A stretch of DNA of 64,000 nucleotides, taken from contig JAEWUV010000006.1 of the NCBI GenBank assembly GCA_023396915.1, positions 21,129-85,128 on the forward strand, written 5' to 3'. This DNA is from Candidatus Parcubacteria bacterium (GTDB lineage: Bacteria; Patescibacteriota; Microgenomatia; UBA12405). The position numbers were made by a program, and so were the translations under genes. The stretch's first letter is position 1; the number at the start of each line of letters is the position of its first letter. Below the pieces are notes generated by a model that was not told the DNA's origin, did not search any database, and worked only from the letters and a program-made list of their open reading frames with translations. This document shows positions 2,497 through 46,769 of this stretch, one piece after another.

Positions 2497-2500
2497 AAAT

Positions 2501-3610
<1,110 letters not shown>

Positions 3611-4722: not shown

Positions 4723-4779
4723 AGCTTATTATAAATGATTAATTTTGTTATAAAAATTGTTATAATATGGACACATTTA

Positions 4780-4864
4780 GCCGCAGTGGTGAAACTGGTA
4801 TACACGCAAGACTTAAAATCTTGTGCTCTCAACAAGCGTGTGGGTTCGATTCCCGCCTGCGGCA
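4780..4864 (+). tRNA. tRNA-Leu(TAA), long variable arm
   Basis: Acceptor stem GCCGCAG/CTGCGGC. Anticodon arm caaga-CTTAAAA-tcttg. T-loop GGTTCGATTCC. Immediately followed by CC and then the next tRNA. Confidence 0.8.
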
Positions 4865-4865
4865 C

Positions 4866-4939
4866 CGGGGATTGGCGCAATTGGCTAGCGTGCGTGCTTT
4901 GGGAGCATGAGGTTGCAGGTTCGAATCCTGTATCCCCGA
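4866..4939 (+). tRNA. tRNA-Pro(TGG)
   Basis: Acceptor stem CGGGGAT/ATCCCCG. Anticodon loop tTTGGGa. T-arm GCAGGTTCGAATCCTGT. Starts 1 nt after the tRNA-Leu discriminator. Confidence 0.7.
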
Positions 4940-5012
4940 CTTCGTTCCGATAAATCGGAACTTCGTCGAGGCAAGGCCCGACTGTTTTGGTAAAATAAGT
5001 TACATTAAAAAT

Positions 5013-5083
5013 GCGGGTATAGTTTAGTGGTAGAACGAAAGATTTCCAATCTCTCGGCAGGGGTTCGATTCCCCTTACCCGCT
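5013..5083 (+). tRNA. tRNA-Gly(TCC)
   Basis: Very similar to E. coli glyT as recalled (GCGGG..TAGTT.A.TGGTAGAACGA.AG.TTCCAA...GGTTCGATTCCC..CCCGCTCCA). Confidence 0.8.
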
Positions 5084-5097
5084 CAGAAATTGTTGAT

Positions 5098-5745
5098 TTA
5101 AATTGTGTTTCCCTGTCGTGTTACAATACTGGATACGATTTTTAGATTTGGAAGTGTTTCTAGAGTCGTTCGAGAAAGATTATTTTTGACTAGATTTACT
5201 CTTATTTCAGGGAAAATTGAAGCAATGAAGTGAGCTGTTGGGGCTTCATCATCACTAAATTCAACAGTATTGTATCCCTTGCTAAGGAGATGAAGTACAT
5301 GAGCTTTACTAATGGTTGAGCTGACACCTGGGGGTTTATAAAAAATTTCTTTGAAAAAATTTAATATACCTGCGTTGTCTAATGTTTCATTGGTTACGTC
5401 TGCCCAAGTTAATTTGTTAGGTCGACCAGTGTTAATAAAGATGTCAAAACCTTCATCGATTAATCTTTTAATTTCGTCAGCTACACCTGGAAATAATTTA
5501 CTTCTGGCAATAAGTTGAAGGGAAAAGTCCTCACTTAGACCTGTAGAAGGTTGTTTTGTTGGTGAATGGTTAATGTCTAAACGGGCAATTTCTTCTCTGG
5601 TGTGTATTGGTAACTCGTGAGGGGGTTTTCTTTGTTTTAAAAAAAGAATGGGTTTTCCTAATGGAGTTATTTTGAATAATGTTCTATCAAGATCAAAAAC
5701 GATAGCTTTTGTTCCTGCTTCTGATAACATGCCGTATTCTAACAT
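5098..5745 (-). CDS. HAD-superfamily hydrolase
   Basis: Motif I FDLDRTL (DxD). A later FINTGRP motif is consistent with HAD phosphatases. Confidence 0.55.
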   Translation of the reverse strand: MLEYGMLSEAGTKAIVFDLDRTLFKITPLGKPILFLKQRKPPHELPIHTREEIARLDINHSPTKQPSTGLSEDFSLQLIARSKLFPGVADEIKRLIDEGFDIFINTGRPNKLTWADVTNETLDNAGILNFFKEIFYKPPGVSSTISKAHVLHLLSKGYNTVEFSDDEAPTAHFIASIFPEIRVNLVKNNLSRTTLETLPNLKIVSSIVTRQGNTI

Positions 5746-7256: not shown

Positions 7257-7592
7257 ATGAAAGCATTGATTAAATTAGTGTTGATGGGTGTGGCAGTGAT
7301 GATAAGTGCTTATGTGATTCCAAATGTTTATGTAGATGGGTTTTTAGTGGCGGTGATAGTGGCCGTGATTTTATCGGTAGTCAACTTTATTATTAAACCG
7401 ATTGTAACTTTATTAACTTTGCCGATTAATATTTTAACTTTGGGTTTGTTTACTTTTGTAATAAATGCGTTGATGGTTTTGTTGGTTTCATCAATAGTTC
7501 CTGGCTTTGTGGTGGTTGGTTTGTGGTCGGCAGTATTGTTTAGTATCGTTTTGTCGATAGTGAATGGATTTTTGAATAAAATTTCTAAGTAA
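7257..7592 (+). CDS. 4-TM membrane protein, 'phage holin 4_2'-like family
   Basis: Entirely hydrophobic 111 aa with the IIKPIVTLLTLPINILTLGLFTF core. A paralog lies at 22362-22781. Confidence 0.5.
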   Translation: MKALIKLVLMGVAVMISAYVIPNVYVDGFLVAVIVAVILSVVNFIIKPIVTLLTLPINILTLGLFTFVINALMVLLVSSIVPGFVVVGLWSAVLFSIVLSIVNGFLNKISK

Positions 7593-8527: not shown

Positions 8528-8609
8528 GCCAGGGTGTTGAAATTGGTATACAAGCATCGCTCAGAACGGTGTGTCGCAAGACGTATGGGTTCAAGTCCCA
8601 TCCCTGGCA
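8528..8609 (+). tRNA. tRNA-Leu(CAG), long variable arm
   Basis: Acceptor stem GCCAGGG/CCCTGGC. Anticodon arm catcg-CTCAGAA-cggtg. T-loop GGTTCAAGTCC. Confidence 0.75.
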
Positions 8610-8655
8610 CTAGGGTAGTGAAAAATGGATAGTATTTAGTATAATAAGGACACTG

Positions 8656-8728
8656 GCCGAAGTAGCCAAGATGGTCACGGCACTGGTCTGAAAAACCTGG
8701 GATGTCAGTTCGAGTCTGACCTTCGGCA
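8656..8728 (+). tRNA. tRNA-Phe(GAA)
   Basis: Acceptor stem GCCGAAG/CTTCGGC. Anticodon loop cTGAAaa. T-arm GTCAGTTCGAGTCTGAC. Confidence 0.6.
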
Positions 8729-8732
8729 CAGT

Positions 8733-8805
8733 GCGGGAATAGCTCAATTGGTGGAGCGTCTCCTTGCCAAGGAGAAGGTCGCGGGTTCGAGTCCCGTTTC
8801 CCGCT
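8733..8805 (+). tRNA. tRNA-Gly(GCC)
   Basis: Acceptor stem GCGGGAA/TTCCCGC. Anticodon arm tctcc-TTGCCAA-ggaga. T-loop GGTTCGAGTCC. Confidence 0.8.
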
Positions 8806-8816
8806 CATTTTTTTTG

Positions 8817-8889
8817 GGCCGTTTAGCTCAGTTGGTAGAGCGCTTCGTTTACATCGAAGATGTCGGGGGTCCGAGTCCCTCAGCGGCCA
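8817..8889 (+). tRNA. tRNA-Val(TAC)
   Basis: D-arm TAGCTCAGTTGGTAGAGC. Anticodon arm cttcg-TTTACAT-cgaag. T-loop GGTCCGAGTCC. Confidence 0.8.
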
Positions 8890-8910
8890 CCCGATTACAT
8901 TAAAAAATAA

Positions 8911-8992
8911 GCCGATGTGGTGAAATTGGTATACACGTACGCTTGAGGTGCGTATGCCGCAAGGCGTGGGGGTTCAAGTCCCTCCATCGGCA
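8911..8992 (+). tRNA. tRNA-Leu(GAG), long variable arm
   Basis: Acceptor stem GCCGATG/CATCGGC. Anticodon arm tacgc-TTGAGGT-gcgta. T-loop GGTTCAAGTCC. Confidence 0.75.
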
Positions 8993-9005
8993 CATTTAGT
9001 TCAAT

Positions 9006-14668: not shown

Positions 14669-16498
14669 TTACAATCCTGATTGAACGAAATCTCCATAAG
14701 AACCTATATCTCCGATACTGGTGGCATCTTTAATTCCGATATAAATCCATTTGACAGGGATGATAGCAAATGAGTATTTATTTGATTCTATTTGACGATA
14801 ATAACCATGAGAATATATTTGTTTTAAGACTTTTGCTCCATTTTTGTAACTGGTATTTAAATTTGCTGTTATTTGTCGGCCAAATTCAGCCAGTTCTTCA
14901 ATTCCTTCACGTTTGAGTTCGGGAGATAATTTTCTCTCTTTTGGGGTTTCTGTGGTGGATTCTTGACCGGTTAGCCATTCAACAACTCTTTGTTTAGTAT
15001 GGTACATAGCTTTCACTTCTGTTTCGAGTTGTTTGTCTTCAGTAATTCCTTTTCGGACAACAAGGTCAACAGAGTGGCCGTGAACATATAACCTATCAAG
15101 TTTGAGATAACTAGCAAGGGCAATAGCATTTTGATAAATTGAATAAGCATCTGAACTTTTATATATTTTTATATAATGTGGAATTTCTCCTATTTTTTGT
15201 AATTCTGAAACTACTTCACATAATTCTTCGTGTCCAGTACCCATACTACTAAATCTCCCTTTAACGACATCTTTGAGATATGCTAATTTACTTTTGGTAT
15301 CTCCGGAAATTTCATAATGGGTTTTAACTCCAAATGATTTTAAGATATCTAATTGTTTTGTAATTTGGGGAACGATTTGTTGGTATAGCTCTGAAGGATA
15401 TTTTTGGAGATATTGAATTCCATTAATGATAATGTATTCATACTGGGAAGCTACTTGTTTTAGTTCAGCATCGGAGCAGTTAAACATAGGAGGGGTTTCG
15501 GCAGAGTTACCGTTTTGATCGAAATACTTAGTAGTGAAAATAATTCTATCTGTAATATCTTTTGATTCTATTATTTGACCATTAAACTCAATTTTTGTTT
15601 TAGCTGGTATTTTGATAGGATAATTTTTTCTGATTGGATGACTTGGGTTAACACTTTCATTATCAGTAATTAAGTGAACTTCCATACCTTTTTCTGAAAA
15701 ATGAAGGAATTTAACTGGTCTTTTGTAGGCACTGGCTTGGTCTGGAGAATTATATTCGGTATAAACTGTACAATTTTCTTCTCCAATGCCGGTTAGAAAG
15801 TCGGTTGATTGAGCTGAGGCCCCTCCAACTTTATTAAAATATTTTGGAAAAGTTGTTTCTACCCAATCAGCTAATTTTTTATCCGAAATGGAGGCTCGAC
15901 TTACACGATATTTAAATGTTCTTAGAATAAAACCAATTACTTGGGCTTTAGTTTTAGCCTCTGTGGAAACATTTGTTGAATCTTCAGGTTCATCTAAAAA
16001 TGTTTGAATTTCTTGTATGACTTGTTCTTTGGATGTTCCTGGTTCGTTGCTGGCATCTTCAATTGCTAAATTAATTGTTTCTTGAGAAAACTGACGGACA
16101 CAATCAACACAAGAATAAAAAGCGGTTAAAATTTTTTTGTGGGTTGGAGGTAAATCTTGGCTTTCGGTAAATAATTTGCCCATGTTTTCTATCATTCTAG
16201 CGAAGATGTGCGGTTGAGTAATTCCGGCTGTTTTTTTATCGACCAAAGCACTAGTATCTAAAAGTTCTTGAATAGATTGTGGTGATGGGAATCTTCCTCC
16301 TTGGTTTTTAAGAGCATCGGAGATTTTTTTATAAGTTTCTGGTCTAGCATCGAAGTGATTTGAATCATTCCCCAGAGTTTGTCCGTCAAGTTGAATACTA
16401 ACAGATGGCAATAATTCTAGCGATTGTCGTAGTTGGAGGACTTGAGATCTATTAATTTCACCTGTGATGAAATTGGTTTCTAACATTTCAGCAGGCAT
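14669..16498 (-). CDS. large uncharacterised protein whose C-terminal half resembles ADP-dependent sugar kinases (ADP-PFK/GK family)
   Basis: The C-terminal half (HYEISGD...SSMGTGHEEL...HGHSVDLVV...IGDIGSYGDF) resembles ADP-dependent kinase family motifs as recalled. The N-terminal ~300 aa have no recognisable domain. Weak, memory-based call. Confidence 0.3.
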   Translation of the reverse strand: MPAEMLETNFITGEINRSQVLQLRQSLELLPSVSIQLDGQTLGNDSNHFDARPETYKKISDALKNQGGRFPSPQSIQELLDTSALVDKKTAGITQPHIFARMIENMGKLFTESQDLPPTHKKILTAFYSCVDCVRQFSQETINLAIEDASNEPGTSKEQVIQEIQTFLDEPEDSTNVSTEAKTKAQVIGFILRTFKYRVSRASISDKKLADWVETTFPKYFNKVGGASAQSTDFLTGIGEENCTVYTEYNSPDQASAYKRPVKFLHFSEKGMEVHLITDNESVNPSHPIRKNYPIKIPAKTKIEFNGQIIESKDITDRIIFTTKYFDQNGNSAETPPMFNCSDAELKQVASQYEYIIINGIQYLQKYPSELYQQIVPQITKQLDILKSFGVKTHYEISGDTKSKLAYLKDVVKGRFSSMGTGHEELCEVVSELQKIGEIPHYIKIYKSSDAYSIYQNAIALASYLKLDRLYVHGHSVDLVVRKGITEDKQLETEVKAMYHTKQRVVEWLTGQESTTETPKERKLSPELKREGIEELAEFGRQITANLNTSYKNGAKVLKQIYSHGYYRQIESNKYSFAIIPVKWIYIGIKDATSIGDIGSYGDFVQSGL

Positions 16499-17055: not shown

Positions 17056-17233
17056 AAAAATGGCGAAATTCGTATTCGCTGGAGTATAACATATATATAA
17101 AATTTGGTTTTTTAGTGTTTTTGGGATGTGAAAAACGGTATTGGTAGTGTTTGATATACATTTCCTTAGTTTTATCCCCTACTATAATTTTTTGAAAAAA
17201 ATATACTGGTAAATACATTAGAAATAAATAATG

Positions 17234-17320
17234 AATTGGGTGTAATTCCCAAACTGTGCCGCAACGGTTAAAGTCCGATCTTATTTATTTTATTAGTTAG
17301 TCCGAGCCAGACTGTCTTTT
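17234..17320 (+). promoter_or_regulatory. cobalamin (B12) riboswitch-like aptamer in the nrdD 5' leader
   Basis: 17238-17278 GGGTGTAATTCCCAAACTGTGCCGCAACGGTTAAAGTCCGA matches the conserved cobalamin riboswitch core (GGTG.AAT.CC....CTG.CCGCAAC.GT.AA). 17299-17316 AGTCCGAGCCAGACTGTC is B12-box-like. Confidence 0.55.
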
Positions 17321-17371: not shown

Positions 17372-19708
17372 ATGTTCAAAAAAATAAAAAAAAGAGATGG
17401 AAGAGTGGTTAAATTTGATTCGAGTAAAATTAAATTGGCAATTCAAAAAGCAGGTAGGGTTACCGGTGAATTTGATGAGAGAATAGCTTTGAAATTGAGC
17501 GTAAAAGTATTAGATTTAGCTGAGGAAAAAATTACAAATAAAATCCCAAAAGTTGAAGAATTGCAGGATGTTGTGGAAGAGGTGTTGTTGGATTCGAAAT
17601 ATAAAAAAACAGCTAAAGAATATATTACCTATAGACAAGAAAGAACACAAATTAGGGAAGCTAAGGCAAATTTGATGCAGGTTTATAAAACAATTGCTTT
17701 GGCTCAGGCAGAAGAAGACAGTGATGTAAAACGGGGTAATGCTAATGTTGATGGCGATACGGCGATGGGAAAAATGTTACAATTTGGAGCTGAAGGAAGT
17801 AAAGAATTTGCCAAAAAATTTTTGATGAAACCAGAACATGCAGTGGCGCACGATAATGGGGATATTCATATTCATGATTTGGATTTTTGGGCCACAGGGA
17901 CGTTGACTTGTTGTCAATCTGACCCGTTAGTTTTATTTGAAAAAGGATTTAATACTGGTCATGGTTTTTTAAGAACACCAAATTCTATTGGTAGTTATGC
18001 GGCATTGGCGGCAATATTGTTACAAGCGAATCAAAATGAACAACATGGGGGGCAGTCTATTCCAAATTTTGATTATGCTATGGCGCCGGGGGTGTTGAAG
18101 ACTTTTAGAAAAAGTTTAGTGAGTAACATTTTAAAATCAATTGATTTTATTTTTAGTAAAAGTATTGAGAAACAAGTGATAAAACAAATTGTTGTTGAGA
18201 TTGAAGAAAAAAATAAATTAACTTTCCCAGAATTGTCCAAGGATTTTTTGAAAAGTTTAAAAAGTTTAGTAAAGAAAAAAATAAAAGAAGATTTAACGTT
18301 TAAACAATTAAATAAGATTGTTGAACTTTCGGTTAAAGATACTGAAGAACAAACAAATCAAGCGATGGAGGGATTGATTCACAACTTGAATACCATGCAT
18401 TCTCGGGCTGGAGCTCAGGTGCCATTTACTTCAATTAACTTTGGGACAGATACTACAGCTGAAGGGCGATTGGTTTCAAAAGCTTTTTTAAAGGCGACTA
18501 TGAATGGGTTAGGAAAAGGAGAAACGCCAATTTTCCCTATCTCAATTTTTAAAGTGAAAGAAGGAATAAATTATAATCCGACGGATCCTAATTATGATCT
18601 ATTTAAGCAATCAATGGAAGTTTCGAGTAAAAGATTGTTTCCTAATTTTGTGTTTGTGGACGCACCATTTAATTTAAAATATTACAAACCAGGTGATTAT
18701 CGAACAGAAATTGCCACCATGGGGTGTAGAACTCGGGTGTTTGGATCGGTATTTCCTGAAAGTGATGGAATTGCCACTAGGAGAGGAAATTGTTCGTTTA
18801 CGACAATAAATTTGCCTAGAATTGGGATAAAACATGGAGTTGATTGGGATGGGTTTTATAAAGAATTAGATGAAAAGATGGATTTAGTGGCTAACCAATT
18901 ATTGGAGAGATTTGAGTTTCAAGGTGAAAGGCGAGTAAGAAATTTTCCATTTTTGATGGGGCAAGGAAATTGGATGGGAAGTGAAAAATTAGGTCCTGAC
19001 GACAAATTAAAAGATGTAATTAAACATGGAACTTTGTCGATTGGTTTTATTGGTTTGGCAGAAACTTTAGTGGCAATGACCGGAAAACATCACGGAGAAT
19101 CGGTTGAGTCCCAAAAAAATGGTTTGGAAATAATTGGATTTATGAGAAAAAAATGTGATGAATTGATGAAGAGATATAATTTGAATTTTAGTTTGTTAGC
19201 AACTCCGGCCGAAGGTTTGTCAGGACGATTTACAAAAATGGATAAAAAAGAATTTGGGGTGATTAAGGGAGTAACTGATCGGGAATTCTATACTAACTCT
19301 TTTCATGTGCCGGTCTACTTCCCTCTTGGAGCTTTTGAAAAAATTGAAATTGAAGCGCCGTATCATGATTTGTGTAATGCTGGACATATTACTTATGTGG
19401 AGTTAGACGGTAATTTGAGTAATAATATTGATGCTTTTGAGGCGGTAGTACGAAAAATGAAAGAATCAGGAGTCGGTTATGGCAGTATTAACCACCCGGT
19501 TGATAGAGATCCGGTATGTGGTTTTAGTGGAATTATAGATGGTGATACTTGTCCGTCCTGTGGCAGAAAAGAGTTTAACAATGGAGTCGGTTTTGAAAGA
19601 TTGAGAAGAATTACCGGTTATTTGGTGGGGTCATTAGAGCGGTGGAATGATGCCAAAAAAGCTGAAGAAAAAGCCAGGGTTAAGCATTCCGTAAAATTTA
19701 AAAATTGA
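17372..19708 (+). CDS. nrdD: anaerobic ribonucleoside-triphosphate reductase (class III)
   Basis: N-terminal ATP-cone (KRDGRVVKFDSSKI). C-terminal Zn motif CPSCG. Glycyl radical motif RITGYLVGSL. Confidence 0.9.
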   Translation: MFKKIKKRDGRVVKFDSSKIKLAIQKAGRVTGEFDERIALKLSVKVLDLAEEKITNKIPKVEELQDVVEEVLLDSKYKKTAKEYITYRQERTQIREAKANLMQVYKTIALAQAEEDSDVKRGNANVDGDTAMGKMLQFGAEGSKEFAKKFLMKPEHAVAHDNGDIHIHDLDFWATGTLTCCQSDPLVLFEKGFNTGHGFLRTPNSIGSYAALAAILLQANQNEQHGGQSIPNFDYAMAPGVLKTFRKSLVSNILKSIDFIFSKSIEKQVIKQIVVEIEEKNKLTFPELSKDFLKSLKSLVKKKIKEDLTFKQLNKIVELSVKDTEEQTNQAMEGLIHNLNTMHSRAGAQVPFTSINFGTDTTAEGRLVSKAFLKATMNGLGKGETPIFPISIFKVKEGINYNPTDPNYDLFKQSMEVSSKRLFPNFVFVDAPFNLKYYKPGDYRTEIATMGCRTRVFGSVFPESDGIATRRGNCSFTTINLPRIGIKHGVDWDGFYKELDEKMDLVANQLLERFEFQGERRVRNFPFLMGQGNWMGSEKLGPDDKLKDVIKHGTLSIGFIGLAETLVAMTGKHHGESVESQKNGLEIIGFMRKKCDELMKRYNLNFSLLATPAEGLSGRFTKMDKKEFGVIKGVTDREFYTNSFHVPVYFPLGAFEKIEIEAPYHDLCNAGHITYVELDGNLSNNIDAFEAVVRKMKESGVGYGSINHPVDRDPVCGFSGIIDGDTCPSCGRKEFNNGVGFERLRRITGYLVGSLERWNDAKKAEEKARVKHSVKFKN

Positions 19709-20196
19709 TGAATCAAATTAGATTAGCTAGTGAAATTGAGACCGATAATGTGGTTAATGGTGATGGCTTGAGAGCTGTAATTTGGTGTCAGGGTTGTAGA
19801 CTTCGTTGCAAGGGGTGCCATAATCCTGAAACTTGGGATGAAAAAGGTGGAACTTTGGTGGATGTTGATGAGATTAAAGGAAAATTAAAAAAAATAAAAG
19901 GTCAAAACGGTTTGACATTTTGTGGTGGTGAACCGATGTTACAACCACTAGTTTGTAAAGAAATAAGTGAGTGGGTAAAAAAAGAATTGGGCTGGTCAGT
20001 GTGGTCGTTTACTGGATATTTATATGAAGATATAAAAAAAGAAGGTGGTGATAGATGGGAGTTTTTGAAGACTTTGGACGTTTTAATTGATGGTCCTTTT
20101 ATATTAGCTGAAAAAGATTTAAGTATTAAATTTAGAGGGTCACGAAATCAAAGATTAATAAGATTGAGTAAAGGTGAAATTTTATCTATTGAATAG
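19705..20196 (+). CDS. nrdG: anaerobic RNR activating protein
   Basis: Radical SAM motif CQGCRLRCKGCHN. Overlaps the nrdD stop by 4 nt. Confidence 0.9.
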   Translation: MMNQIRLASEIETDNVVNGDGLRAVIWCQGCRLRCKGCHNPETWDEKGGTLVDVDEIKGKLKKIKGQNGLTFCGGEPMLQPLVCKEISEWVKKELGWSVWSFTGYLYEDIKKEGGDRWEFLKTLDVLIDGPFILAEKDLSIKFRGSRNQRLIRLSKGEILSIE

Positions 20197-20211: not shown

Positions 20212-20631
20212 ATGCAATGGTATATAGCGGCGGCTTTGTCAGCAATATTTGCCGCTTTAACATCAATTTTGGCTAAAATTGGGATTAAAGATGTAAATAG
20301 TAATTTGGCTACAGCTATTAGAACTTCTTTTGTATTAATGATTACTTGGGGAATCGCTTTTTGGCAGGGTGGAGTTTCGGGGATCAGTAGTATCTCAAAA
20401 AATAGTTGGGTATTTTTAATTTTGTCGGCAGTGGCTACTGGTTTGTCTTGGGTATTTTATTTTTATGCTTTGAAAGTTGGTGAGGCCAGTAAAGTAGCAC
20501 CGATTGATAAAATGAGTTTAGTATTAACAATTTTGTTTGCGGCGTTGATTTTAGGGGAAAAGATTACTTGGGCAAAGGCGGTGGGAGCATTGTTAATGAC
20601 GGGTGGAGTCTTGATAATTGCGTTGTTTTAA
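20212..20631 (+). CDS. EamA/DMT-like small membrane transporter
   Basis: Four predicted TM helices with an EamA-like pattern (ILAKIGIK..., GEKITWAKAVGALLMTGGVLIIALF). Confidence 0.55.
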   Translation: MQWYIAAALSAIFAALTSILAKIGIKDVNSNLATAIRTSFVLMITWGIAFWQGGVSGISSISKNSWVFLILSAVATGLSWVFYFYALKVGEASKVAPIDKMSLVLTILFAALILGEKITWAKAVGALLMTGGVLIIALF

Positions 20632-20813
20632 ATTTGGGTGGTGGAAGAAGTGGCTTCAGTTGTTGGAATTTGGGTGGGGAGAATTAATTCTTGGTTTTCG
20701 AGACGATTAAGGACTGTCCAGTCAATACTTTTATAAGAAATAATACCGGCGATTATTAATAAGATGAATAAAATAGTAAGAATAATTGGCCCAAAAATGT
20801 CTTTGTTTTTCAT
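20628..20813 (-). CDS. small single-TM protein (61 aa)
   Basis: One hydrophobic helix. Last gene of the minus-strand envelope operon. Weak call. Confidence 0.3.
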   Translation of the reverse strand: MKNKDIFGPIILTILFILLIIAGIISYKSIDWTVLNRLENQELILPTQIPTTEATSSTTQI

Positions 20814-20814
20814 A

Positions 20815-22146
20815 TTACTTAATTCTATTGATGGTATAAATGGTTGGATAATATAAAAAGATTGCTGGAGATTCTTCTAATAGGTAGGTTTGGAAGTCTT
20901 GATATATTTTCTTGCGTTCGATTTGATCGCTGGTTTGACGACCTTCTTCTAGAAGTTTATCGATGCGGGCGTCGTTAAGTTTAGTAATATTAGTATTAAC
21001 TTGGGTTGAATGCCAAAAAAGGTATTGGTCTGGATCTTTGGTGATAGCGCCATAGGTTAATAATGTCTCATAATCGTTAATGTTTATTTGGTTTTCAATC
21101 GAAATTGATACGGGGATACCAAATGTTTCTTGCCATGAAGTTTTGATACTTTCAGCAACAGAAAGTAACTCGCGGTTGTTAACACTTAGGTTAAGATGGT
21201 CAATTTTTTCATCCCCCAATAATTCTTTGGCTCTAGTTTTATTGTAATTATATTCTTTAATATCCGGATTGTAGGCCCATGAGGTGGGAGAGATTGGACC
21301 AAGGCAGCGTTCATTTTTATCTCCTTTTGTGGTTGAATAGGCTAGGGCTTGGCGAATTTGTCGATTACTAATTTTTTGGGTATTGATAAAAATAGCTACG
21401 TATTTTTCATTAGTTTCTATTTTTTTACTGATGTTTAAGTTTTTCCAAGTAGTTAGTTCTTGTGGTAACGAATTAATCCGAATTTCGTCGACATTGCCTA
21501 TTTTAAAAGCATGGACAACATCGTTTTGGTTGAAAAAAAAGTAATATTTTATTGGATTTAAGTCTTTGTGGCGTGGTTTTAAGTAAATAGTTTTTATATA
21601 ACCTTCTTGATAAGTAACCTTAGTAACGGAATATTCCCCTAGCCCATTAAAATTTTTTTTGATTAAAGGTTGACTTAGCAAAGCCAGAATTGGTTCAAAA
21701 GCGGATTCTGATGATATTTTAATACTGTACTGAGATAGTGGAGTAATAGAAACGCCGTCTATTTTATAATTAATATCATAAGCAGTTAGATTTTTTCCAT
21801 TACTCCAGTAAATATTATTTTTAAGATTAAAAATATAGTCTTTATTTTCGTTTTGGATATCAAGACTATCAACAATCTGAGAAATTTCTGGTTTTTGATT
21901 TTCTGAAAGAGTCATTAGCCCAAAACTTATTTTTTGAGAAATTTCGTCAGGAAGTGTGTCGACAGTATATCTGCCTTCGAGACCTATGATTTTGGTATGC
22001 CAAGAAGGCTGATTATAAATGGAAACTATTTGGTTTTTAAAAATAAATGCAGCTGTAATTATCAAAAAAATAACGGTAGCAATGAGCCAGTGTTTTTTGA
22101 GATATATCCAAAGAATTTCTAGCTTAAAATGAATTTTAGTAAACAC
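20815..22146 (-). CDS. membrane-anchored solute-binding-protein family 5-like protein
   Basis: N-terminal TM anchor. The C-terminal half looks like SBP_bac_5 (YSTTKGDKNER..., AIFLYYPTIYTINR). No adjacent ABC permease or ATPase. Confidence 0.45.
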   Translation of the reverse strand: MFTKIHFKLEILWIYLKKHWLIATVIFLIITAAFIFKNQIVSIYNQPSWHTKIIGLEGRYTVDTLPDEISQKISFGLMTLSENQKPEISQIVDSLDIQNENKDYIFNLKNNIYWSNGKNLTAYDINYKIDGVSITPLSQYSIKISSESAFEPILALLSQPLIKKNFNGLGEYSVTKVTYQEGYIKTIYLKPRHKDLNPIKYYFFFNQNDVVHAFKIGNVDEIRINSLPQELTTWKNLNISKKIETNEKYVAIFINTQKISNRQIRQALAYSTTKGDKNERCLGPISPTSWAYNPDIKEYNYNKTRAKELLGDEKIDHLNLSVNNRELLSVAESIKTSWQETFGIPVSISIENQININDYETLLTYGAITKDPDQYLFWHSTQVNTNITKLNDARIDKLLEEGRQTSDQIERKKIYQDFQTYLLEESPAIFLYYPTIYTINRIK

Positions 22147-22155
22147 GTTTTTGGT

Positions 22156-22365
22156 TTAGATTAAAGTTTGAATAATGGAAGAAATGATAAAAATAACGAT
22201 AATAAAAATTGTTAAATTAAACATAATTTTTTCCCAACCACGTTTTTGCGGAGCTGGTGACATTAAGTTGGAGCGGGATTCACTGTCGCCATTTGTTTGA
22301 AGAAAAACAAGACCGGCCAGAACTATAGACAGAATAATTTGAATTATGATGAGAGCTGTTTTCAT
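22156..22365 (-). CDS. secG: SecG-like preprotein translocase subunit
   Basis: 69 aa with two TM helices and a LAGLVFLQTNG motif, like SecG (LxxLxQxxKG). Confidence 0.5.
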   Translation of the reverse strand: MKTALIIIQIILSIVLAGLVFLQTNGDSESRSNLMSPAPQKRGWEKIMFNLTIFIIVIFIISSIIQTLI

Positions 22366-22781
22366 TGTTTAACTTTTTTCTTAATAATTAATGTAAATAG
22401 ATTTAGAAAGAAACCTATGGTGATTGAAGTGACTAGGTAGGCAAAAAAGCCTGAAAAGTTTAATTGTGGAATATTTATTCCCAAGACAGACGTTTCTGGA
22501 GTGTGAATATTTTTTATGTAAAAGTCGGAAAAAATGAACACTGCCAAATAAAGTCCAACTACATCGATAATGGCACGAAAAAGACCTAGGGTAAGGATAT
22601 TTATGGGGAAAAGAATAATTTTTAGTATTGGTTTGATGATAATTTCAAAAATAGATAAAAGAAATCCGGTTTTGATTATGGTCCATGGGATGTTGATAAA
22701 TTCTAAGTTACCCCAAATTTGATTAGCGGTGATTAAACTGAAAGTGATGAGGAGAGTTAATTTAGCGATTTTTTTTATCAT
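22362..22781 (-). CDS. 4-TM membrane protein, 'phage holin 4_2'-like family (paralog of 7257-7592)
   Basis: Shares the IIKPILKIILFPINILTLGLF core with the ORF at 7257-7592. Confidence 0.5.
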   Translation of the reverse strand: MIKKIAKLTLLITFSLITANQIWGNLEFINIPWTIIKTGFLLSIFEIIIKPILKIILFPINILTLGLFRAIIDVVGLYLAVFIFSDFYIKNIHTPETSVLGINIPQLNFSGFFAYLVTSITIGFFLNLFTLIIKKKVKQ

Positions 22782-24522
22782 GATTTTTCTTTTTTATTAT
22801 ACCGCCAAGGCCAATTAAAGTGGCGATTGAAGCGATAATTATGGTCCAGTGAAGATAAAATTGATAAAGGGGTATCTTAAAACTAATATTTTGATTGTTA
22901 TACTCTAAGTTGATTTTGTAAGTATTTAAGTTTAGAGAATTTAGAAAACTAAAGTTTGGAAATGTGTTTTCGATTGAAGACAATGGAGGGATTAGTGTAA
23001 TTTCTTGTTTAAAGTTAATGGACTTTATTGATAAAAATAATTTTGAGGCTGAATTGTAGTTAGGGTTAGTAATTTTGATTTTTGGAGTTTGGAAAGCCTT
23101 AGAAATAGTTTTTACGACTAAAGGAGTCATCTCATTTTTAAGTTCGTTTTTGGCAAATTCTACATTAATAGTTTTGATGTTTTGTCTGTTTTTATATCCG
23201 CCTGCTGAAATAGGCTGTTGACTGTCAATGCCATGAAAAACAAAGGCGAAATGATTGGGATCAAGATCATTAAAATAATCGATACCATTGGTGGTTTTTT
23301 CCCAAGTCGGGTCAACCGAAATCCAAGCTTTTTTTGAAGTGTCATAATATTGTGGCCAAGCATGGAGGATATCAGTATTGATGTTTATGGGTTTTATCTT
23401 GGTATTGTTACTGTAAGCGAAACCTTCAACTTCTCGGGCGGGTATACCCTTGATACGACATAGAGTGATAAAAAGATCAGTAAATTCGGTGCATAAAACA
23501 GAGTTTGGGAAGGTAACAGCCATAGTGGCTCCCTGACGAATTGAAGTGTCGTAATCATCGGTTTTATAACTTAAAGTGTTAACGACATATCGATAGATAT
23601 CTTTGACATTCTTTAATTGGTTGGCAATTTGGATTAAAGATGGATCGTTAGTTTCCCAAAATATATCTGATGTAGTGTATTGTTGTGGTTTAATGTCGGC
23701 ATAATTTAGATTTGTATGAATAATTTTGGCTTGACCGTCAATGTTAATTTCTAATTCTTGGTTGGGGTTCAATTCGTAAGAGGCCAGGTAGTTGCCATCA
23801 GGGTCAATGTTAATATTTTTTGGGGCTGGAATAATTGATCTGTAGGTAATTTTTTGGGAAGTGGTTTCTGGGGGGAAGGCAACAGAAAGGGTTTGTTTTT
23901 CAGAAGAACTGTTTTCTAAAAAATACTTAAATTTAAAATCAAAGAGTTGGTAATCACCAAATATTAGAAGAATTTTTGAAGTGGATATATTTTGAAAATA
24001 AAGTTCGGTTTGGTTATTGAGAAATATATTTTTTTGAGGCGGAGCGGAAGTGAAAGATAGATTGCCAAAACTTGAAGGAACAGTAATAGTAATTTCTGTT
24101 TGGGAGGCATATCCAGATGATTGGTTTTCAGGTAGAGCAATTTCCCAAGTATTTCCTTTGTTTTGAGCTAAAGTTTTTATATTGTAATTGAGTTTAAATT
24201 TAGTGGTTTTATTTTTACCGGTATTTTCTTGGTTAAAAACAATATTAATTGTGGTTGATTCGTTTTGTTGGTCAATGCTTTTAATGATATTACCTAAATT
24301 ATCTGAACCGGTGATGTTTTCTATTTGATTTGAAGATAGAGTAATTTGGTACTCTTTTGGGTAAATTTGAGAATAGTTATTAGTTAGTTCTATTTGTTGA
24401 GTAACAGTGGCATTGCCAGAGTTGTCAATTTGATATTGAATTTGTTGAGAGATATTAAATTCGTTGGCGGCAAAAATAGATTTGGGAATGAGAAAAAATA
24501 AGATTAGAAACAGATAAAACAT
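22762..24522 (-). CDS. secreted/membrane-anchored transglutaminase-like cysteine protease domain protein
   Basis: N-terminal signal peptide. Transglutaminase-like core LCTEFTDLFITLCRIKGIPAREVEGFAY...HAWPQYY...WISVDPTWE (Cys-His-Asp). C-terminal TM anchor. Confidence 0.65.
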   Translation of the reverse strand: MFYLFLILFFLIPKSIFAANEFNISQQIQYQIDNSGNATVTQQIELTNNYSQIYPKEYQITLSSNQIENITGSDNLGNIIKSIDQQNESTTINIVFNQENTGKNKTTKFKLNYNIKTLAQNKGNTWEIALPENQSSGYASQTEITITVPSSFGNLSFTSAPPQKNIFLNNQTELYFQNISTSKILLIFGDYQLFDFKFKYFLENSSSEKQTLSVAFPPETTSQKITYRSIIPAPKNINIDPDGNYLASYELNPNQELEINIDGQAKIIHTNLNYADIKPQQYTTSDIFWETNDPSLIQIANQLKNVKDIYRYVVNTLSYKTDDYDTSIRQGATMAVTFPNSVLCTEFTDLFITLCRIKGIPAREVEGFAYSNNTKIKPININTDILHAWPQYYDTSKKAWISVDPTWEKTTNGIDYFNDLDPNHFAFVFHGIDSQQPISAGGYKNRQNIKTINVEFAKNELKNEMTPLVVKTISKAFQTPKIKITNPNYNSASKLFLSIKSINFKQEITLIPPLSSIENTFPNFSFLNSLNLNTYKINLEYNNQNISFKIPLYQFYLHWTIIIASIATLIGLGGIIKKKNHDKKNR

Positions 24523-24573
24523 GAGTAGTTTACTATAACATTAAATTTGTCTAATTGACTTCGGGTATTATTC

Positions 24574-25215
24574 GTGTATATTAAATTTATGGCAACCACA
24601 TTATATAAAAGACAGAAGCAAATTTTAGATTATATTGACAAAAATATTGAGGATTACGGTTATGCCCCGACATTGACGGAAATCGCACAACATTTTGGGT
24701 TGTCTTCTTTGTCGACGGTTCATGAACATTTGGCGGTGTTAGAAAAAAAAGGATTAATCAGACGTTATAAAGGTGCAGTTAGAGGTATAGAGGTTTTGCA
24801 AAAAGAGACTGAAGAAATAGCCGGAATGGCGGCAATGATAGAGTTGCCGGTTTTGGGTTTTATTGCCTGTGGTGAACCGATTGAACCATATACTGATCCG
24901 AATGCTACTTTGGCAGTAAATAGTAATCTGGTTAGACCGGGTGATAAATCTTTTGTACTTCAAGCCAAAGGAGACTCGATGATTGACGATGGAATATTAA
25001 GTGGTGATTATGTGGTGGTCAAAGAACAACGCAATGCTTATGATGGGGACATTGTAGTGGCGGTTTTGAAAAATGGATTTGCTACATTAAAAAGATTTTA
25101 CAAAGAAGCGACCAGAATTAGGCTTCAACCAGCAAATTCGACCATGTCCCCTATTTATGTAAGAGATGTGGAAATACGGGGGAAAGTAGTAGCAGTGATT
25201 AGACAATTTAATTAG
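24574..25215 (+). CDS. lexA: LexA repressor
   Basis: N-terminal wHTH (LTEIAQHFGLSSLSTVHEHL). Cleavage-site region and S24 peptidase motif GDSMIDDGI...VAVLKNGFATLKRF (Ser/Lys dyad). Confidence 0.85.
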   Translation: MYIKFMATTLYKRQKQILDYIDKNIEDYGYAPTLTEIAQHFGLSSLSTVHEHLAVLEKKGLIRRYKGAVRGIEVLQKETEEIAGMAAMIELPVLGFIACGEPIEPYTDPNATLAVNSNLVRPGDKSFVLQAKGDSMIDDGILSGDYVVVKEQRNAYDGDIVVAVLKNGFATLKRFYKEATRIRLQPANSTMSPIYVRDVEIRGKVVAVIRQFN

Positions 25216-25218: not shown

Positions 25219-25857
25219 ATGTTGTATATAATAGCGACACCGATTGGGAATCTAAAAGATATTACTGTAAGGGCAATGGAAACTTTGGAAAAGGTGGAAT
25301 ATTTGTTGTGTGAGGATACGAGAAACACAGGGTTGTTGTTGAAAAATTTAGGAATTAAAAATAAACCAAAATTAATTTCTTTTTATGATGAAGTGGAAGA
25401 TCAAAAAATTCCAGAAATAATAAATTTATTAAAAGAAAATAAAGAAGTTGGGTTGGTGACAGATGCTGGAACTCCAATAATCTCGGATCCGGGATGGAAA
25501 TTAATTAAAAAATGCCAAGGTTTAGGGATTAGTTATACGTCTTTGCCTGGAGCGTGTGCGGCAATTAATGGAGCAGTTTTGTCGGGCTTGCCGGTTGGAA
25601 GATTTTCTTTTTTGGGATTTTTGTCAAAAAAAGATGGTGAGAGAAAAAAGATTTTGGAAAAATATAAAAGTATCGATGGAGCAAAAATTGTTTATGAATC
25701 TCCTTTTCGGGTGGAAAAGTTAGTAGAGCAAATTAGACAAGTTTATGGAGGTGAAGTGCAAATAAAAATTATTCGGGAAATGACTAAAAAGTTTGAAGAA
25801 GTTTTGGAGACAACTAGTAAAAATATTAAGGGTGAAATAACGGTTATTTTTTGCTAA
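25219..25857 (+). CDS. rsmI: 16S rRNA (cytidine1402-2'-O)-methyltransferase
   Basis: Tetrapyrrole-methylase fold N-terminus YIIATPIGNLKDITVRA...CEDTRNTGLLL, typical of RsmI. Confidence 0.8.
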   Translation: MLYIIATPIGNLKDITVRAMETLEKVEYLLCEDTRNTGLLLKNLGIKNKPKLISFYDEVEDQKIPEIINLLKENKEVGLVTDAGTPIISDPGWKLIKKCQGLGISYTSLPGACAAINGAVLSGLPVGRFSFLGFLSKKDGERKKILEKYKSIDGAKIVYESPFRVEKLVEQIRQVYGGEVQIKIIREMTKKFEEVLETTSKNIKGEITVIFC

Positions 25858-39150: not shown

Positions 39151-39885
39151 ATGTTTAAAGAAGGGTCTCCATCACATTCTTTGAATATTAATAAAGAAAA
39201 AAGTTTTAATTGGGACAGGGCTTTGGAGGCAGCAAAGTTTTTTGAACGCGACATTGATGTAGAGGATGTAGTTCCTAGATATGTTACTAATTGGGAGATT
39301 TTGGCTTCTTTTGTAAATTTGGCAATAGACTTAAAAGGAAAAGAATTTAAATACAACACTATAGTTTCTGATGATGGGGGTGGTCGAGTTATATCGATTT
39401 TTATAAAATATCTTTTTAGTATTAAGCGTATGGAGATTGAAAATAATGCTCCTAGTCCAATGGTTTATTTTGTTTCTCCACATAAACCGGATTTAGTGAA
39501 TAGTTTTGTTGATAATATTCATGATTCATTGGGAAAAGTCTTGGTGGTTACGGAATTAATTAGAAATGGGAAAGGGACGAGAGTTTTTGGTGATGCCTTG
39601 AAAAGATATAACGATGTAAGTTTTGATGTGGCCTCGGTTTCTAGTGTGAAGCCTGGAGTACCAGAACAACTAGAGTCTGAATATAACACTAAGGTGTTTG
39701 TAGGTGAGAGTCTAGGTTGGGGAGCGGGAGAGGTTTTTCATAAACAACCGTTTAATGCGGTTGGTGGTGTCCTTATAGAAGGGAAACCACATTTAAAAAA
39801 AAGAGATGATTTTGATTCCCCAGTTGTGGCTGCTGCTCGGAAGAATATTTTTACTTTAGCTGAGGAAATTTCGAAGTTAATTTAG
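39151..39885 (+). CDS. hypothetical protein, possibly phosphoribosyltransferase-like
   Basis: Weak PRTase-like motif VLVVTELIRNGKGT (hydrophobic run + acidic + G.T). Otherwise uncharacterised. Adjacent to the purine genes. Confidence 0.3.
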   Translation: MFKEGSPSHSLNINKEKSFNWDRALEAAKFFERDIDVEDVVPRYVTNWEILASFVNLAIDLKGKEFKYNTIVSDDGGGRVISIFIKYLFSIKRMEIENNAPSPMVYFVSPHKPDLVNSFVDNIHDSLGKVLVVTELIRNGKGTRVFGDALKRYNDVSFDVASVSSVKPGVPEQLESEYNTKVFVGESLGWGAGEVFHKQPFNAVGGVLIEGKPHLKKRDDFDSPVVAAARKNIFTLAEEISKLI

Positions 39886-40997: not shown

Positions 40998-40998
40998 T

Positions 40999-46415: not shown

Positions 46416-46769
46416 TTGAAAAAGGAAGTTGTTTATATTGATGTTTATCGATATAATAGTTTTATGGATAAAATTTTTAAGGCATTAGCCGATAGAAACA
46501 GAAGGAAAATATTAACTTTGCTAAAGGATAAAGAATATTCAGTAACGGATTTATTGGTCAATTTTGATATTGGGCAGGCGACTTTGTCCAGCCATTTAGC
46601 GATTTTAAAAAAAGCAGAATTAGTTAATTGCAGAGTAGTTGGTAAACAAAGAATATATAGGTTAAATTGTGAGACACTAACAATTTTTGCCCAAAATTTA
46701 CGTAAATTTGTTGGAATTATAGAGGAAACAGGCATACAGGATATTGCAATAAGACCAAGTCGGGTGTAA
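46416..46769 (+). CDS. ArsR/SmtB-family transcriptional regulator
   Basis: wHTH motif ALADRNRRKILTLLKDKEYSVTDLLVNFDIGQATLSSHLAILKKAELV. Confidence 0.7.
   Translation: MKKEVVYIDVYRYNSFMDKIFKALADRNRRKILTLLKDKEYSVTDLLVNFDIGQATLSSHLAILKKAELVNCRVVGKQRIYRLNCETLTIFAQNLRKFVGIIEETGIQDIAIRPSRV

Follow-up and report, generated by a model that had tools for sequence, protein, structure and literature searches.

A coupled envelope gene cluster divergent from lexA in Candidatus Shapirobacteria and its apparent relation to a lexA-uvr neighbourhood

Genes transcribed divergently from lexA are known to encode membrane-anchored, extracellularly exposed division inhibitors, and for one of them, ChiZ, wall-hydrolase activity has been reported (PMC6851548). 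Envelope genes are also found on the divergent side of lexA in the 64-kb window considered here, i.e. the whole stretch of DNA that was analysed. The source organism belongs to Candidatus Shapirobacteria (Microgenomates, CPR), the name carried by the orthologues. Five ORFs are located on the minus strand exactly where the preliminary description had placed them: 22762-24522, 22362-22781, 22156-22365, 20815-22146 and 20628-20813. They encode, in this order, the transglutaminase-like protein TG (586 aa), the PF04020 protein HOL (139 aa), SecG (69 aa), the solute-binding protein SBP (443 aa) and the small membrane protein SM (61 aa). TG and HOL overlap by 20 nt and HOL and secG by 4 nt; the gaps between secG and SBP and between SBP and SM comprise 9 nt and 1 nt, respectively. 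A promoter/terminator scan detected no terminator-like site on the minus strand within the cluster. The overlapping or abutting junctions had been taken as a sign of translational coupling, and related loci bear this out: the genes recur contiguously, in this order and spacing, in 55 of 84 loci sampled, many of which ended early at contig ends, and SM is included in 48 of these 55. Contiguous loci display either 4-nt overlaps or gaps of 1-6 nt (modal junctions -4, -4, +2 and +2 to +4 nt), and HOL is directly followed by secG with a 4-nt overlap in 48 of them. Gene order is identical in orthologous loci although the downstream flank varies. The conservation of order and spacing is far beyond chance, and the spacing suggests that all five genes are co-transcribed.

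Domains were assigned with a Pfam scan and TIGRFAM profiles at curated cut-offs and topology with a hydropathy scan; all four families proposed earlier (Transglut_core, Phage_holin_4_2, SecG and SBP_bac_5) score above their cut-offs. TG (22762-24522, minus strand) matches PF01841 with 56.6 bits (cut-off 23). Its signal peptide is followed by a β-sandwich N-region (~22-268), a catalytic core (~290-445), a β C-domain (452-549), a TM segment (555-576) and a basic tail, KKKNHDKKNR. C344, H387 and D404 do not vary among the orthologues compared (54 close and 9 distant, down to 32% identity). In the AF2 model (pLDDT 78), the active-site region 384-441 is of low confidence. Foldseek matched the core to the cysteine protease 3isr and the β region to ribophorin/Ost1 and to the N-domains of M1 aminopeptidases. 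TG can be described as a secreted enzyme of the transglutaminase fold that is membrane-anchored at its C-terminus, keeps the complete Cys-His-Asp triad and is predicted to be active.

HOL (22362-22781, minus strand) is a divergent multi-pass member of PF04020 (Phage_holin_4_2/DUF360-type; 41.2 bits, cut-off 28.8). Four TM segments had been claimed; at a threshold of 1.6, three clear hydrophobic segments are present and a weaker N-terminal one falls below detection. All other topology predictions agree with those made before. The label 'holin-like' is justified for the family match but not as a functional reading: HOL has neither a PHROG nor a PADLOC match, and no phage or defence signal was found. 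A second, more canonical PF04020 paralogue is encoded elsewhere in the window. With no phage context, no PHROG match and this paralogue, a function of HOL as phage holin was rejected. SecG (22156-22365, minus strand) has two hydrophobic segments and matches both PF03840 (34.4 bits, cut-off 29.2) and TIGR00810 (35.2 bits, cut-off 30.85). SBP (20815-22146, minus strand; PF00496 SBP_bac_5, 59.4 bits, cut-off 32.4) carries an N-terminal TM anchor and a family-5, cluster C solute-binding fold. PDB profile searches retrieved HbpA, AgaA, NikZ and DppA at 1e-15 to 1e-12. Its AF2 model (pLDDT 80) is matched by Foldseek to NikZ 4oet (E 1.7e-27, TM 0.66) and to YliB, NikA and DppA (TM 0.69-0.70). The view that SBP is an orphan holds: the Pfam scan, which covered 56 of the 61 window ORFs that reach 110 aa, detected no ABC component, and no ABC partner borders any of the 84 loci; their flanks show a single unrelated ABC-like ORF, ~4 kb downstream in L033. 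SM (20628-20813, minus strand) has no family match among Pfam and TIGRFAM profiles. The small TM peptide has nevertheless proved to be a conserved membrane protein, with 48 distinct orthologues of 58-78 aa encoded directly 3' of SBP. In these single-pass proteins, the N-terminal TM is followed by the conserved juxtamembrane motif SYKSIDWxVLKRLExxPLxLPTPIP and a tail rich in Ser, Thr and Pro. SM and the convergent eamA share 4 nt at the SM stop codon.

lexA (24589-25215, plus strand, 208 aa; TIGR00498, 205.6 bits) encodes a repressor with the Cys-Gly self-cleavage site in the motif IACGEP. It is flanked in the same orientation by rsmI, the gene for the 16S rRNA C1402 2'-O-methyltransferase (25219-25857, plus strand; TIGR00096, 205.7 bits), a conserved neighbour that adjoins lexA in 56 loci. 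All orthologues share the N-terminus MATTLYKRQKQ, which makes the ATG at 24589 the almost certain start of lexA, in place of the GTG at 24574. The divergent gap to the operon thus comprises 66 bp, and the earlier figure of 51 bp has to be corrected; genes called independently on the source scaffold agree with both the 208-aa length of LexA and the 66-bp gap. A promoter scan placed the lexA promoter (TTGACT-16 nt-TATATT, 24555-24582, plus strand) 6 nt before the ATG, and it is conserved in aligned lexA upstream regions. The operon possesses its own extended -10 element (TGTTATAGT on the minus strand, 24532-24540), read from the sequence 9 nt before the TG ATG. In 20 of the 25 loci examined, among them loci with a distant lexA, a TGnTATATT-type element precedes the TG ATG by 6-13 nt. 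With so little room before the start codon, the mRNA would be leaderless or nearly so.

The spacer of the lexA promoter contains a candidate LexA operator, CTTCGGGTATTATTCGTG (TTCG-N7-TTCG, 24559-24576, plus strand), 22 nt upstream of the operon -10 hexamer; across loci, it ends 20-22 nt upstream of this hexamer. The element is not palindromic and is the sole perfect match in the 64-kb window. There is one site per locus, always adjoining lexA, with PWM scores of 22.4-30.6 (maximum 30.8) that fall below 27 only in L029 and L035. TTCG-N7-TTCG is also found between lexA and uvrB in two loci (L065 and L070, the latter with start codons ~48 bp apart). Because it precedes uvrB even where lexA is absent (L058, L068, L072), it is probably a LexA operator. 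Insertions have moved lexA and TG 342-3385 bp apart in 9 of 50 loci, and the operator stays with lexA; in one of the nine (L031), the gap holds masked N bases. Separated loci with a readable TG upstream region (L003, L004, L009, L028) have kept the promoter and lack the operator, so that LexA control is not conserved in them. The proposal that the operon shares a control region with lexA is therefore only partly upheld: a candidate operator does lie beside the operon promoter, but this promoter is the operon's own. Since the operon can be separated from lexA with the operator left behind, LexA control seems plausible, but not required.

Small, slowly rearranging CPR genomes can retain long-range synteny without functional coupling. 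Order, spacing and the link to lexA recur across relatives, but the five genes do not behave as the self-contained system suggested previously. In Ames-, Levy-, Davies- and Woesebacteria, TG is located between uvrA and uvrC, in the order uvrB-uvrA-TG-uvrC-HOL-secG-SBP divergent from lexA. uvrA and TG overlap by 4 nt in L077 and L082, and in L082 uvrB sits between lexA and uvrA. HOL, secG and SBP are present in 78, 77 and 71 of the 84 loci and are inverted as one block in five (L059, L073, L074, L080, L083). These data point to HOL-secG-SBP as the stable core, which moves as a cassette across Microgenomates, and to TG as being tied to uvrA and uvrC instead. SM is restricted to Shapirobacteria-type loci; in six of the uvr-linked lineages, CcdA is encoded after SBP. 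The adjacency to lexA looks like what is left of an earlier layout with uvrB-uvrA-TG-uvrC-... divergent from lexA. The envelope genes seem to be the remnant of a DNA-damage-linked cluster, not an independent system for surface attachment, because relatives interleave them with uvrB, uvrA and uvrC; history alone may account for the linkage of uvr and envelope genes.

With moderate confidence, we consider the five ORFs to be one conserved, translationally coupled and probably leaderless envelope operon of Candidatus Shapirobacteria that was left from a lexA-uvr cluster and retains a residual, dispensable LexA input. In the older Microgenomates arrangement, lexA would have been divergent from uvrB-uvrA-TG-uvrC-HOL-secG-SBP. 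Departure of the uvr genes from the locus in Shapirobacteria would have brought the extended -10 element of the TG operon to its present distance of 20-22 nt from the operator. LexA bound at this site would occlude the -35 region and could reduce transcription until DNA damage lifts the repression. The main role of the operon would be constitutive envelope and secretion maintenance: SecG would act within SecYEG, TG would cleave or cross-link surface proteins or wall peptides, and HOL would be a housekeeping membrane protein. The ligand of SBP at the cell surface would be peptide-like and bound on behalf of a distant partner or in a role other than transport.

Other readings assign more specific tasks to these products. 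TG might be an extracellular protease that frees peptides, and SBP might catch them for a remotely encoded Opp/Dpp-type importer that feeds an amino-acid-auxotrophic CPR cell. TG is indeed extracytoplasmic with an intact protease-type triad, SBP has a complete cluster-C fold nearest to peptide, nickel and murein-peptide binders, and both are conserved and probably co-transcribed in Shapirobacteria. Such scavenging is, however, distinctly unlikely: a permease or ATPase is absent from the 64 kb and from the flanks of the 84 loci, and the SBP ectodomain, compared with Foldseek target lengths, is ~80-100 residues shorter than typical OppA/DppA. Moreover, TG (with uvrA and uvrC) and SBP (with secG and HOL) travel separately in other Microgenomates, which argues against a functional pair. 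HOL-secG-SBP could alternatively be a lineage-specific SecYEG accessory. Outside the membrane, SBP would then hold or receive unfolded chains as they emerge, and HOL would be a partner within the membrane. Gene context speaks for this: no other part of the neighbourhood is as stable as the trio, which stays together, is inverted as one unit across Microgenomates, has 4-nt and 1-6-nt junctions and includes an SBP without local ABC partner. Periplasmic SBPs such as OppA are said, in work by Richarme and Caldas from 1997, to have chaperone-like activity in vitro. Yet SecG is small and non-essential and compact genomes can inherit gene order without function, so we regard an accessory role as very improbable. 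CPR bacteria are frequently episymbionts, and secreted TG and binding proteins might mediate contact to a host cell: each product is either exposed at the surface or a membrane protein, and the large β-sandwich domains of TG are of a type that often serves in binding. Host-interaction proteins, however, usually diversify, duplicate and move, whereas close Shapirobacteria-type orthologues have a mean column identity of 67-71%, one orthologue per locus and fixed synteny. As the cluster further includes the housekeeping secG and the Pfam scan revealed neither adhesin repeats nor genes for pili or secretion systems there, an attachment module is likewise very improbable.

The remaining alternative is an SOS-controlled envelope checkpoint, in which the operon would belong to the LexA regulon and its products, with TG and/or SM as effectors, would respond to DNA damage by delaying division or remodelling the wall. 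In 41 of 50 loci, the candidate operator covers the -35 region of TG, which is transcribed divergently from lexA; other Microgenomates place TG in a uvrB-uvrA-TG-uvrC unit headed by TTCG-N7-TTCG, and its papain-like fold is predicted to be able to cut or cross-link wall peptides. In addition, profile scans revealed no SulA, YneA or LysM-type candidate adjoining lexA, and the lexA-divergent membrane-anchored inhibitors provide a published precedent (PMC6851548). We nonetheless judge a checkpoint unlikely: the operon has its own promoter and has lost the operator in 9 of 50 loci, secG and SBP have no obvious role in it, a LysM domain is absent according to the Pfam scan, and SM closes the operon at the end far from lexA, with none detected after SBP in uvr-linked lineages. 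A checkpoint role would match YneA, ChiZ, DivS and SosA, the lexA-divergent single-pass membrane inhibitors of Gram-positive bacteria. TG, a multidomain enzyme of 586 aa, is unlike these known inhibitors of 50-110 aa. SM has a SosA-like architecture, in which a conserved extracellular segment adjoins a short TM at the N-terminus.

Five ORFs follow one another on the minus strand of the window: TG (22762-24522, 586 aa) encodes a transglutaminase-like protein, HOL (22362-22781, 139 aa) a PF04020 protein, secG (22156-22365, 69 aa) a SecG-like subunit, SBP (20815-22146, 443 aa) a solute-binding-like protein and SM (20628-20813, 61 aa) a small membrane protein. All were found exactly where the preliminary description had located them. 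Its Transglut_core, Phage_holin_4_2, SecG and SBP_bac_5 assignments score above the curated cut-offs (Pfam, NCBIfam), and the topologies it proposed agree with a hydropathy scan. From TG to SM, the ORFs overlap by 20 nt and by 4 nt and are then separated by 9 nt and by 1 nt. The end of SM overlaps the convergent eamA by 4 nt. On the plus strand, the cluster is flanked by lexA (TIGR00498, 205.6 bits) followed by rsmI. The nearest homologues of both TG and SBP carry the name Candidatus Shapirobacteria (Microgenomates, CPR).

A one-genome-per-species scan yielded 207 TG relatives, and 80 loci were kept; gene orders were counted using iterative HMM searches over the ORFs of all 84 loci collected for comparison. 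In this comparison, which covers the synteny check proposed earlier, TG-HOL-secG-SBP is contiguous in 55 of the 84, and in 48 of these 55 SM directly follows SBP. Orthologous loci with about 55% identity display ppdK, then rsmI-lexA on one strand and TG-HOL-secG-SBP-SM on the opposite strand, while the downstream flank is not constant. Among the 55 contiguous loci, 35 have a TG-HOL junction of -4 nt and 48 a HOL-secG junction of -4 nt. The gap is mostly +1 to +6 nt between secG and SBP and mostly +2 to +4 nt between SBP and SM. A scan of the minus strand found no terminator-like site within the cluster region. The tight, recurrent junctions are the signature expected of a translationally coupled operon. 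For SM, neither Pfam nor NCBIfam yielded a family match. It has 48 distinct orthologues, which have in common a TM helix, a tail rich in Ser, Thr and Pro and the motif SYKSIDWxVLKRLExxPLxLPTPIP; by this conservation, SM is a genuine gene.

A different layout was found in distant loci titled Ames-, Levy-, Davies- and Woesebacteria, where TG identity amounts to 32-41%. There, TG is flanked by uvrA and uvrC, and in many cases it directly adjoins uvrA or overlaps it (4 nt overlap in L077 and L082, 0 nt gap in L073). HOL-secG-SBP comes after uvrC, in most of these loci on the same strand; in L059, L073, L074, L080 and L083, the block is inverted as a unit. The full order in L082 is rsmI-lexA on one strand and uvrB-uvrA-TG-uvrC-HOL-secG-SBP on the other. 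Comparison of this uvr-linked layout with that of the Shapirobacteria-type loci therefore points to the HOL-secG-SBP cassette as the stable core of the neighbourhood and to TG as being tied to the excision-repair genes. This means that the five-gene unit of the preliminary description holds as a contiguous arrangement in 48 loci, whereas its core is smaller and TG belongs with uvrA and uvrC elsewhere. As the interleaved layout is present in several differently named lineages, we infer that it came first: The Shapirobacteria-type layout would follow from it if the locus lost uvrB, uvrA and uvrC. A Pfam scan of 56 ORFs detected no uvr genes in the window, so that only the envelope genes of the uvr-plus-envelope set are left.

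Several uvr-linked loci carry additional genes. In six of them, a CcdA/DsbD-like thiol-disulfide membrane protein is encoded after SBP in the place of SM (L060, L065, L070, L072, L075, L078), four of which are Amesbacteria (L060, L065, L070, L072). Furthermore, uvrA and TG are separated in some loci by inserted genes: a histidine kinase and a response regulator (L056, L069), a PIG-L/LmbE-type deacetylase with the motif FAHPDDEA (L068, L072, L078) or a transposase-like ORF (L065, L084). These insertions were discarded as a clue, as they are variable and without consistent signal.

The preliminary description had the operon begin 51 bp from lexA. This distance had to be corrected. Every LexA orthologue begins with MAT(I/V/T)LYKRQKQ; therefore, lexA (24589-25215, plus strand) most probably starts at ATG 24589 instead of GTG 24574, which gives a divergent gap of 66 bp. 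The gene call on a matching metagenomic scaffold has the same start and the same gap. The canonical self-cleavage site of LexA is Ala-Gly. LexA of the window carries IACGEP at residues ~90-95, and Shapirobacteria-type LexA has Cys-Gly at this site (IACG[EAQ]P or ISCGEP, 50 sequences, loci L001-L057) with the Ser (GDSM) and Lys motifs still present. In uvr-linked Ames- and Levybacteria, IAAG is kept. The Cys-Gly change coincides with the absence of uvrB, uvrA and uvrC from the locus.

An alignment of all lexA upstream regions revealed a common block composed of a -35 box, a spacer element and a -10 box. In the window, these are TTGACT (24555-24560, plus strand), CTTCGGGTAwTrTTCGyG (24559-24576, plus strand), a TTCG-N7-TTCG direct repeat in the conserved 15-18-nt spacer, and TATATT (24577-24582, plus strand), which ends 6 nt before the ATG. 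Using a PWM built from the lexA-upstream sites, exactly one strong site was found per locus, always adjoining lexA. uvrA and uvrB are LexA-regulated nucleotide-excision-repair genes of the core SOS regulon. In the Daviesbacteria locus L058, the element directly precedes the extended -10 box of uvrB with no lexA nearby. Likewise, it precedes uvrB without lexA in L068 and L072. In L065 and L070, it is flanked by lexA on one side and uvrB on the other, and their start codons are only ~48 bp apart in L070. Because it co-occurs at lexA and at uvrB, the element is a probable LexA operator. On the minus strand, the operon has an extended -10 box of its own (TGTTATAGT, reverse complement, 24532-24540), 9 nt before the ATG of TG. 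Among 25 loci analysed, 20 carry a TGnTATATT-type element 6-13 nt upstream of the TG start codon. With -10 boxes so close to the start codons, both lexA and the TG operon look leaderless.

The preliminary description had suggested that the operon might share the control region of lexA. In the lexA-adjacent loci measured, the candidate operator covers the -35 region of the operon, as its end is 20-22 nt upstream of the -10 hexamer. Hence, LexA repression of the operon would be geometrically plausible. The other side of the suggestion fared less well: In 9 of 50 loci, lexA and TG are separated by 342-3385 bp, the operator remains beside lexA, and none of these nine loci has a second copy. The operon promoter is kept in all four separated loci that are readable (L003, L004, L009, L028). 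These loci are evidence against a required LexA link. In the 64-kb window, no second operator copy was found, and matches with three mismatches number 7, compared to 7.05 expected by chance.

Of the 120 stretches returned by a metagenome-wide scan for the element, 11 are lexA sites, and most come from unrelated contigs of high GC that match by chance. The full promoter context (TTGAC, TTCGGGTAwTrTTCG and a -10 box) is present at two further sites, which precede genes for LAGLIDADG/HTH homing-endonuclease-like proteins: one at 4027-4043 (plus strand) of L105 before ORF 4056-5264, the other in L204 before ORF 2434-2979 (minus strand). They could be mobile endonucleases under the control of DNA damage, or else the promoter module may have been reused.

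TG matches PF01841 with 56.6 bits (cut-off 23) over residues 301-405. C344, H387 and D404 are invariant among 54 close and 9 distant orthologues (32-39% identity). The AlphaFold model (pLDDT 78; residues 384-441, which include His387 and Asp404, are of low confidence) comprises a signal peptide, a beta-rich N-region (~22-268), a catalytic core (~290-445), a beta C-domain (452-549) and, at the C-terminus, a helix followed by a basic tail. In Foldseek searches, the core matches 3isr, a putative cysteine protease of Cytophaga hutchinsonii (E 1.9e-6), and the N-region resembles beta-sandwich domains found in M1 aminopeptidases and in ribophorin/Ost1. When the PDB was searched with a TG profile, the only matches were 3isr (1.2e-5) and a protein-glutamine gamma-glutamyltransferase. 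Score, triad and the papain-like alpha/beta core fold place TG in the transglutaminase-like superfamily as a predicted enzyme. With PF01841 cysteine proteases like 3isr it shares the catalytic core and the Cys-His-Asp triad. In contrast to these proteases, TG has beta-sandwich regions flanking the core on both sides, a signal peptide and a C-terminal membrane anchor. Another member of the superfamily is CPR-C4 (PDB 7OB6). This cysteine protease, conserved across the CPR, has a vasohibin/transglutaminase-like fold, ~215 residues per chain and a Cys-His-Leu(carbonyl) triad, and it crystallised as a homodimer (PMC9108980). Assignment of TG to the CPR-C4 family was rejected, as size and triad differ and no CPR-C4 chain is among the PDB matches of the TG profile (E up to 1).

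HOL scores 41.2 bits against PF04020 (cut-off 28.8) and resembles the family in being a small multi-pass membrane protein. A Kyte-Doolittle scan reveals three clear hydrophobic segments (~40-58, 65-83, 115-133); an N-terminal one stays under the threshold. HOL is a divergent paralogue of a canonical PF04020 copy in the window (7257-7592, plus strand, 111 aa, 106 bits), which adjoins an inositol-monophosphatase-family gene. PF04020/DUF360, named "Mycobacterial 4 TMS phage holin" family, includes YvlD-type chromosomal members of B. subtilis. In this genome, the family is a housekeeping one and not phage-derived. Unlike the phage holins of PF04020, HOL is fixed beside secG: It neighbours TG and secG in the contiguous loci and has no lysis-cassette or prophage context. 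PHROG families gave no match for TG, HOL or SM. A phage lysis cassette with a true holin was rejected based on the missing PHROG match, the absence of an endolysin and the second chromosomal paralogue. Consequently, the term holin-like is justified by the PF04020 score but not as a functional statement. A literature search on PF04020 found nothing relevant. By its scores (PF03840 34.4 bits, cut-off 29.2; TIGR00810 35.2 bits, cut-off 30.85), its length of ~70 aa and two predicted TM helices (hydrophobic segments 4-22 and 47-65 in the hydropathy scan), the secG product qualifies as SecG.

SBP matches PF00496 (SBP_bac_5) with 59.4 bits (cut-off 32.4). Its predicted model (pLDDT 80) displays a complete two-lobed cluster-C fold, and Foldseek aligned it with NikZ (4oet; E 1.7e-27, TM 0.66) and with YliB, NikA and DppA (TM 0.69-0.70). 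Sequence and model thus assign SBP to the family 5/cluster C solute-binding fold. It belongs to none of the named equivalogs (OppA, DppA, NikA, GsiB etc.), being far under every NCBIfam cut-off; the best match, Opp4A, reaches 69 bits with a cut-off of 650. Compared to the cluster-C proteins NikZ (4oet), DppA (1dpp/1dpe), MppA (4toz) and YliB/GsiB (1uqw), the two-lobed fold is shared (TM 0.66-0.70), whereas identity is just 14-21%, the ectodomain is shorter, and an N-terminal TM helix (hydropathy scan) serves as anchor where the others have a lipobox or a cleaved signal. Moreover, SBP has no permease or ATPase gene next to it; its constant partners are secG and the PF04020 gene. The lack of an ABC partner noted before was borne out: Neither BPD_transp nor ABC_tran was detected by Pfam in 56 ORFs scanned of the 61 ORFs of at least 110 aa in the window, and a scan of 84 loci for Walker-A and LSGGQ motifs, reaching ~8 kb from the cluster, found only one ABC-like ORF, an unrelated one ~4 kb downstream in L033. 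A literature search on Microgenomates solute-binding proteins yielded nothing relevant.

The window contains other features of note. An AdoCbl-II (B12) riboswitch (17221-17291, plus strand; 46.1 bits, gathering score 36.5) is located directly upstream of the genes for anaerobic class III ribonucleotide reductase, nrdD (17372-19708) and nrdG (19705-20196). At 39882-42012 and 14669-16498, both on the minus strand, two tandem DUF1246/DUF1297 proteins, which we take to be of the PurP-type, archaeal-style FAICAR synthetase family, and a weak match to the ADP-dependent PFK/glucokinase family were found; judged by these matches, this CPR genome has metabolic genes of archaeal type. At 46416-47414 (plus strand), an ArsR-family regulator is followed by a protein with two LysM stretches; no other LysM protein was seen in the window, and this one is distant from lexA. 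Fifteen tRNA genes are present, several of them clustered at 4780-5084 and 8528-8993. Every 2-kb bin has a positive GC skew (0.05-0.38), and the cumulative curve climbs steadily even with genes on both strands; therefore, the window should lie within one replichore.

Taken together, the conserved envelope operon is probably what is left of a supra-operon that combined uvr and envelope genes and was divergent from lexA. It would serve the housekeeping maintenance of envelope and secretion, and the input of LexA would be residual and dispensable. Other explanations have been considered. The operon might act as an SOS envelope/division checkpoint, which has some contextual support in the position and membrane topology shared with YneA, ChiZ, DivS and SosA. 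Some support from the context exists as well for TG and SBP forming a peptide-scavenging pair of protease and binding protein, and for a Sec-accessory cassette. The host-attachment module proposed in the preliminary description has some contextual support too, but fits least well: It is at odds with sequences this well conserved, with single-copy genes in fixed order and with secG being part of the set. An anti-phage defence system was rejected, since PADLOC found no match for any of the five proteins. A more far-reaching proposal combines two roles: TG in a LexA-controlled uvr unit, which in Shapirobacteria became lexA-divergent with a SosA-like SM, would couple DNA damage to wall or division, and the tethered, ABC-less SBP and the PF04020 protein would together with SecG form a lineage-specific accessory of the translocon. 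We regard this combination as unlikely; if true, it would represent a previously undescribed class of effectors that couple DNA damage to wall or division.

Each of the recognisable genes (TG, HOL, secG, SBP) is, by its profile matches, a member of a known family. As a set, they are unmatched by PADLOC and PHROGs, and literature searches found no description of it, in agreement with the earlier view that this is not a described system. The same searches found no report on a linkage between uvr genes and an extracellular transglutaminase-fold gene. As judged from gene order, the class-wide interleaving of such a gene with uvrA and uvrC, preceded by a probable LexA operator, is new, and so is the constant HOL-secG-SBP cassette with an ABC-less solute-binding protein. 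CPR bacteria account for much of bacterial diversity. To our knowledge, almost nothing is known about their envelope biology and stress responses. The locus offers a candidate Microgenomates LexA operator, the direct repeat in the promoter spacer, and a class-wide link between excision repair and an extracellular enzyme candidate of the transglutaminase fold. The cassette with its full-fold SBP but no local transporter could reveal a non-transport role of solute-binding proteins. Demonstration of LexA control or of a Sec-associated role would raise the interest. If no functional link holds, the locus is a clean example of the decay of an ancestral supra-operon in a reduced genome.

Among known systems, the SOS division inhibitors YneA, ChiZ/Rv2719c, DivS and SosA of Gram-positive bacteria are encoded divergently from lexA and are membrane-anchored with extracellular parts; for ChiZ, wall-hydrolase activity was reported (PMC6851548). 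The operon resembles their genes in its divergent orientation over a short common control region, and its products are also membrane-anchored with extracellular parts. SM also has their architecture, being small with a single TM helix and an extracellular C-terminus, but it is encoded by the last gene of the operon. The lexA-proximal product is instead a 586-aa transglutaminase-fold protein, followed by secG and SBP. Pfam found no LysM domain in the operon products, whereas YneA-type inhibitors often have one. Furthermore, the adjacency of lexA and TG appears to be secondary here, with uvrB and uvrA lost from between, and the operator is absent from the operon in the nine separated loci. The divergent position is thus that of a YneA/ChiZ/DivS/SosA-type locus, although the operon is not a member of this type.

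The classical uvr regulon provides the second comparison. In Ames-, Levy- and Daviesbacteria, the element of the lexA promoter precedes uvrB at the head of uvrB-uvrA-...-uvrC, which corresponds to classical SOS logic. In contrast to the classical regulon, these loci accommodate a gene for an extracytoplasmic transglutaminase-fold protein between uvrA and uvrC and a set of envelope genes after uvrC.
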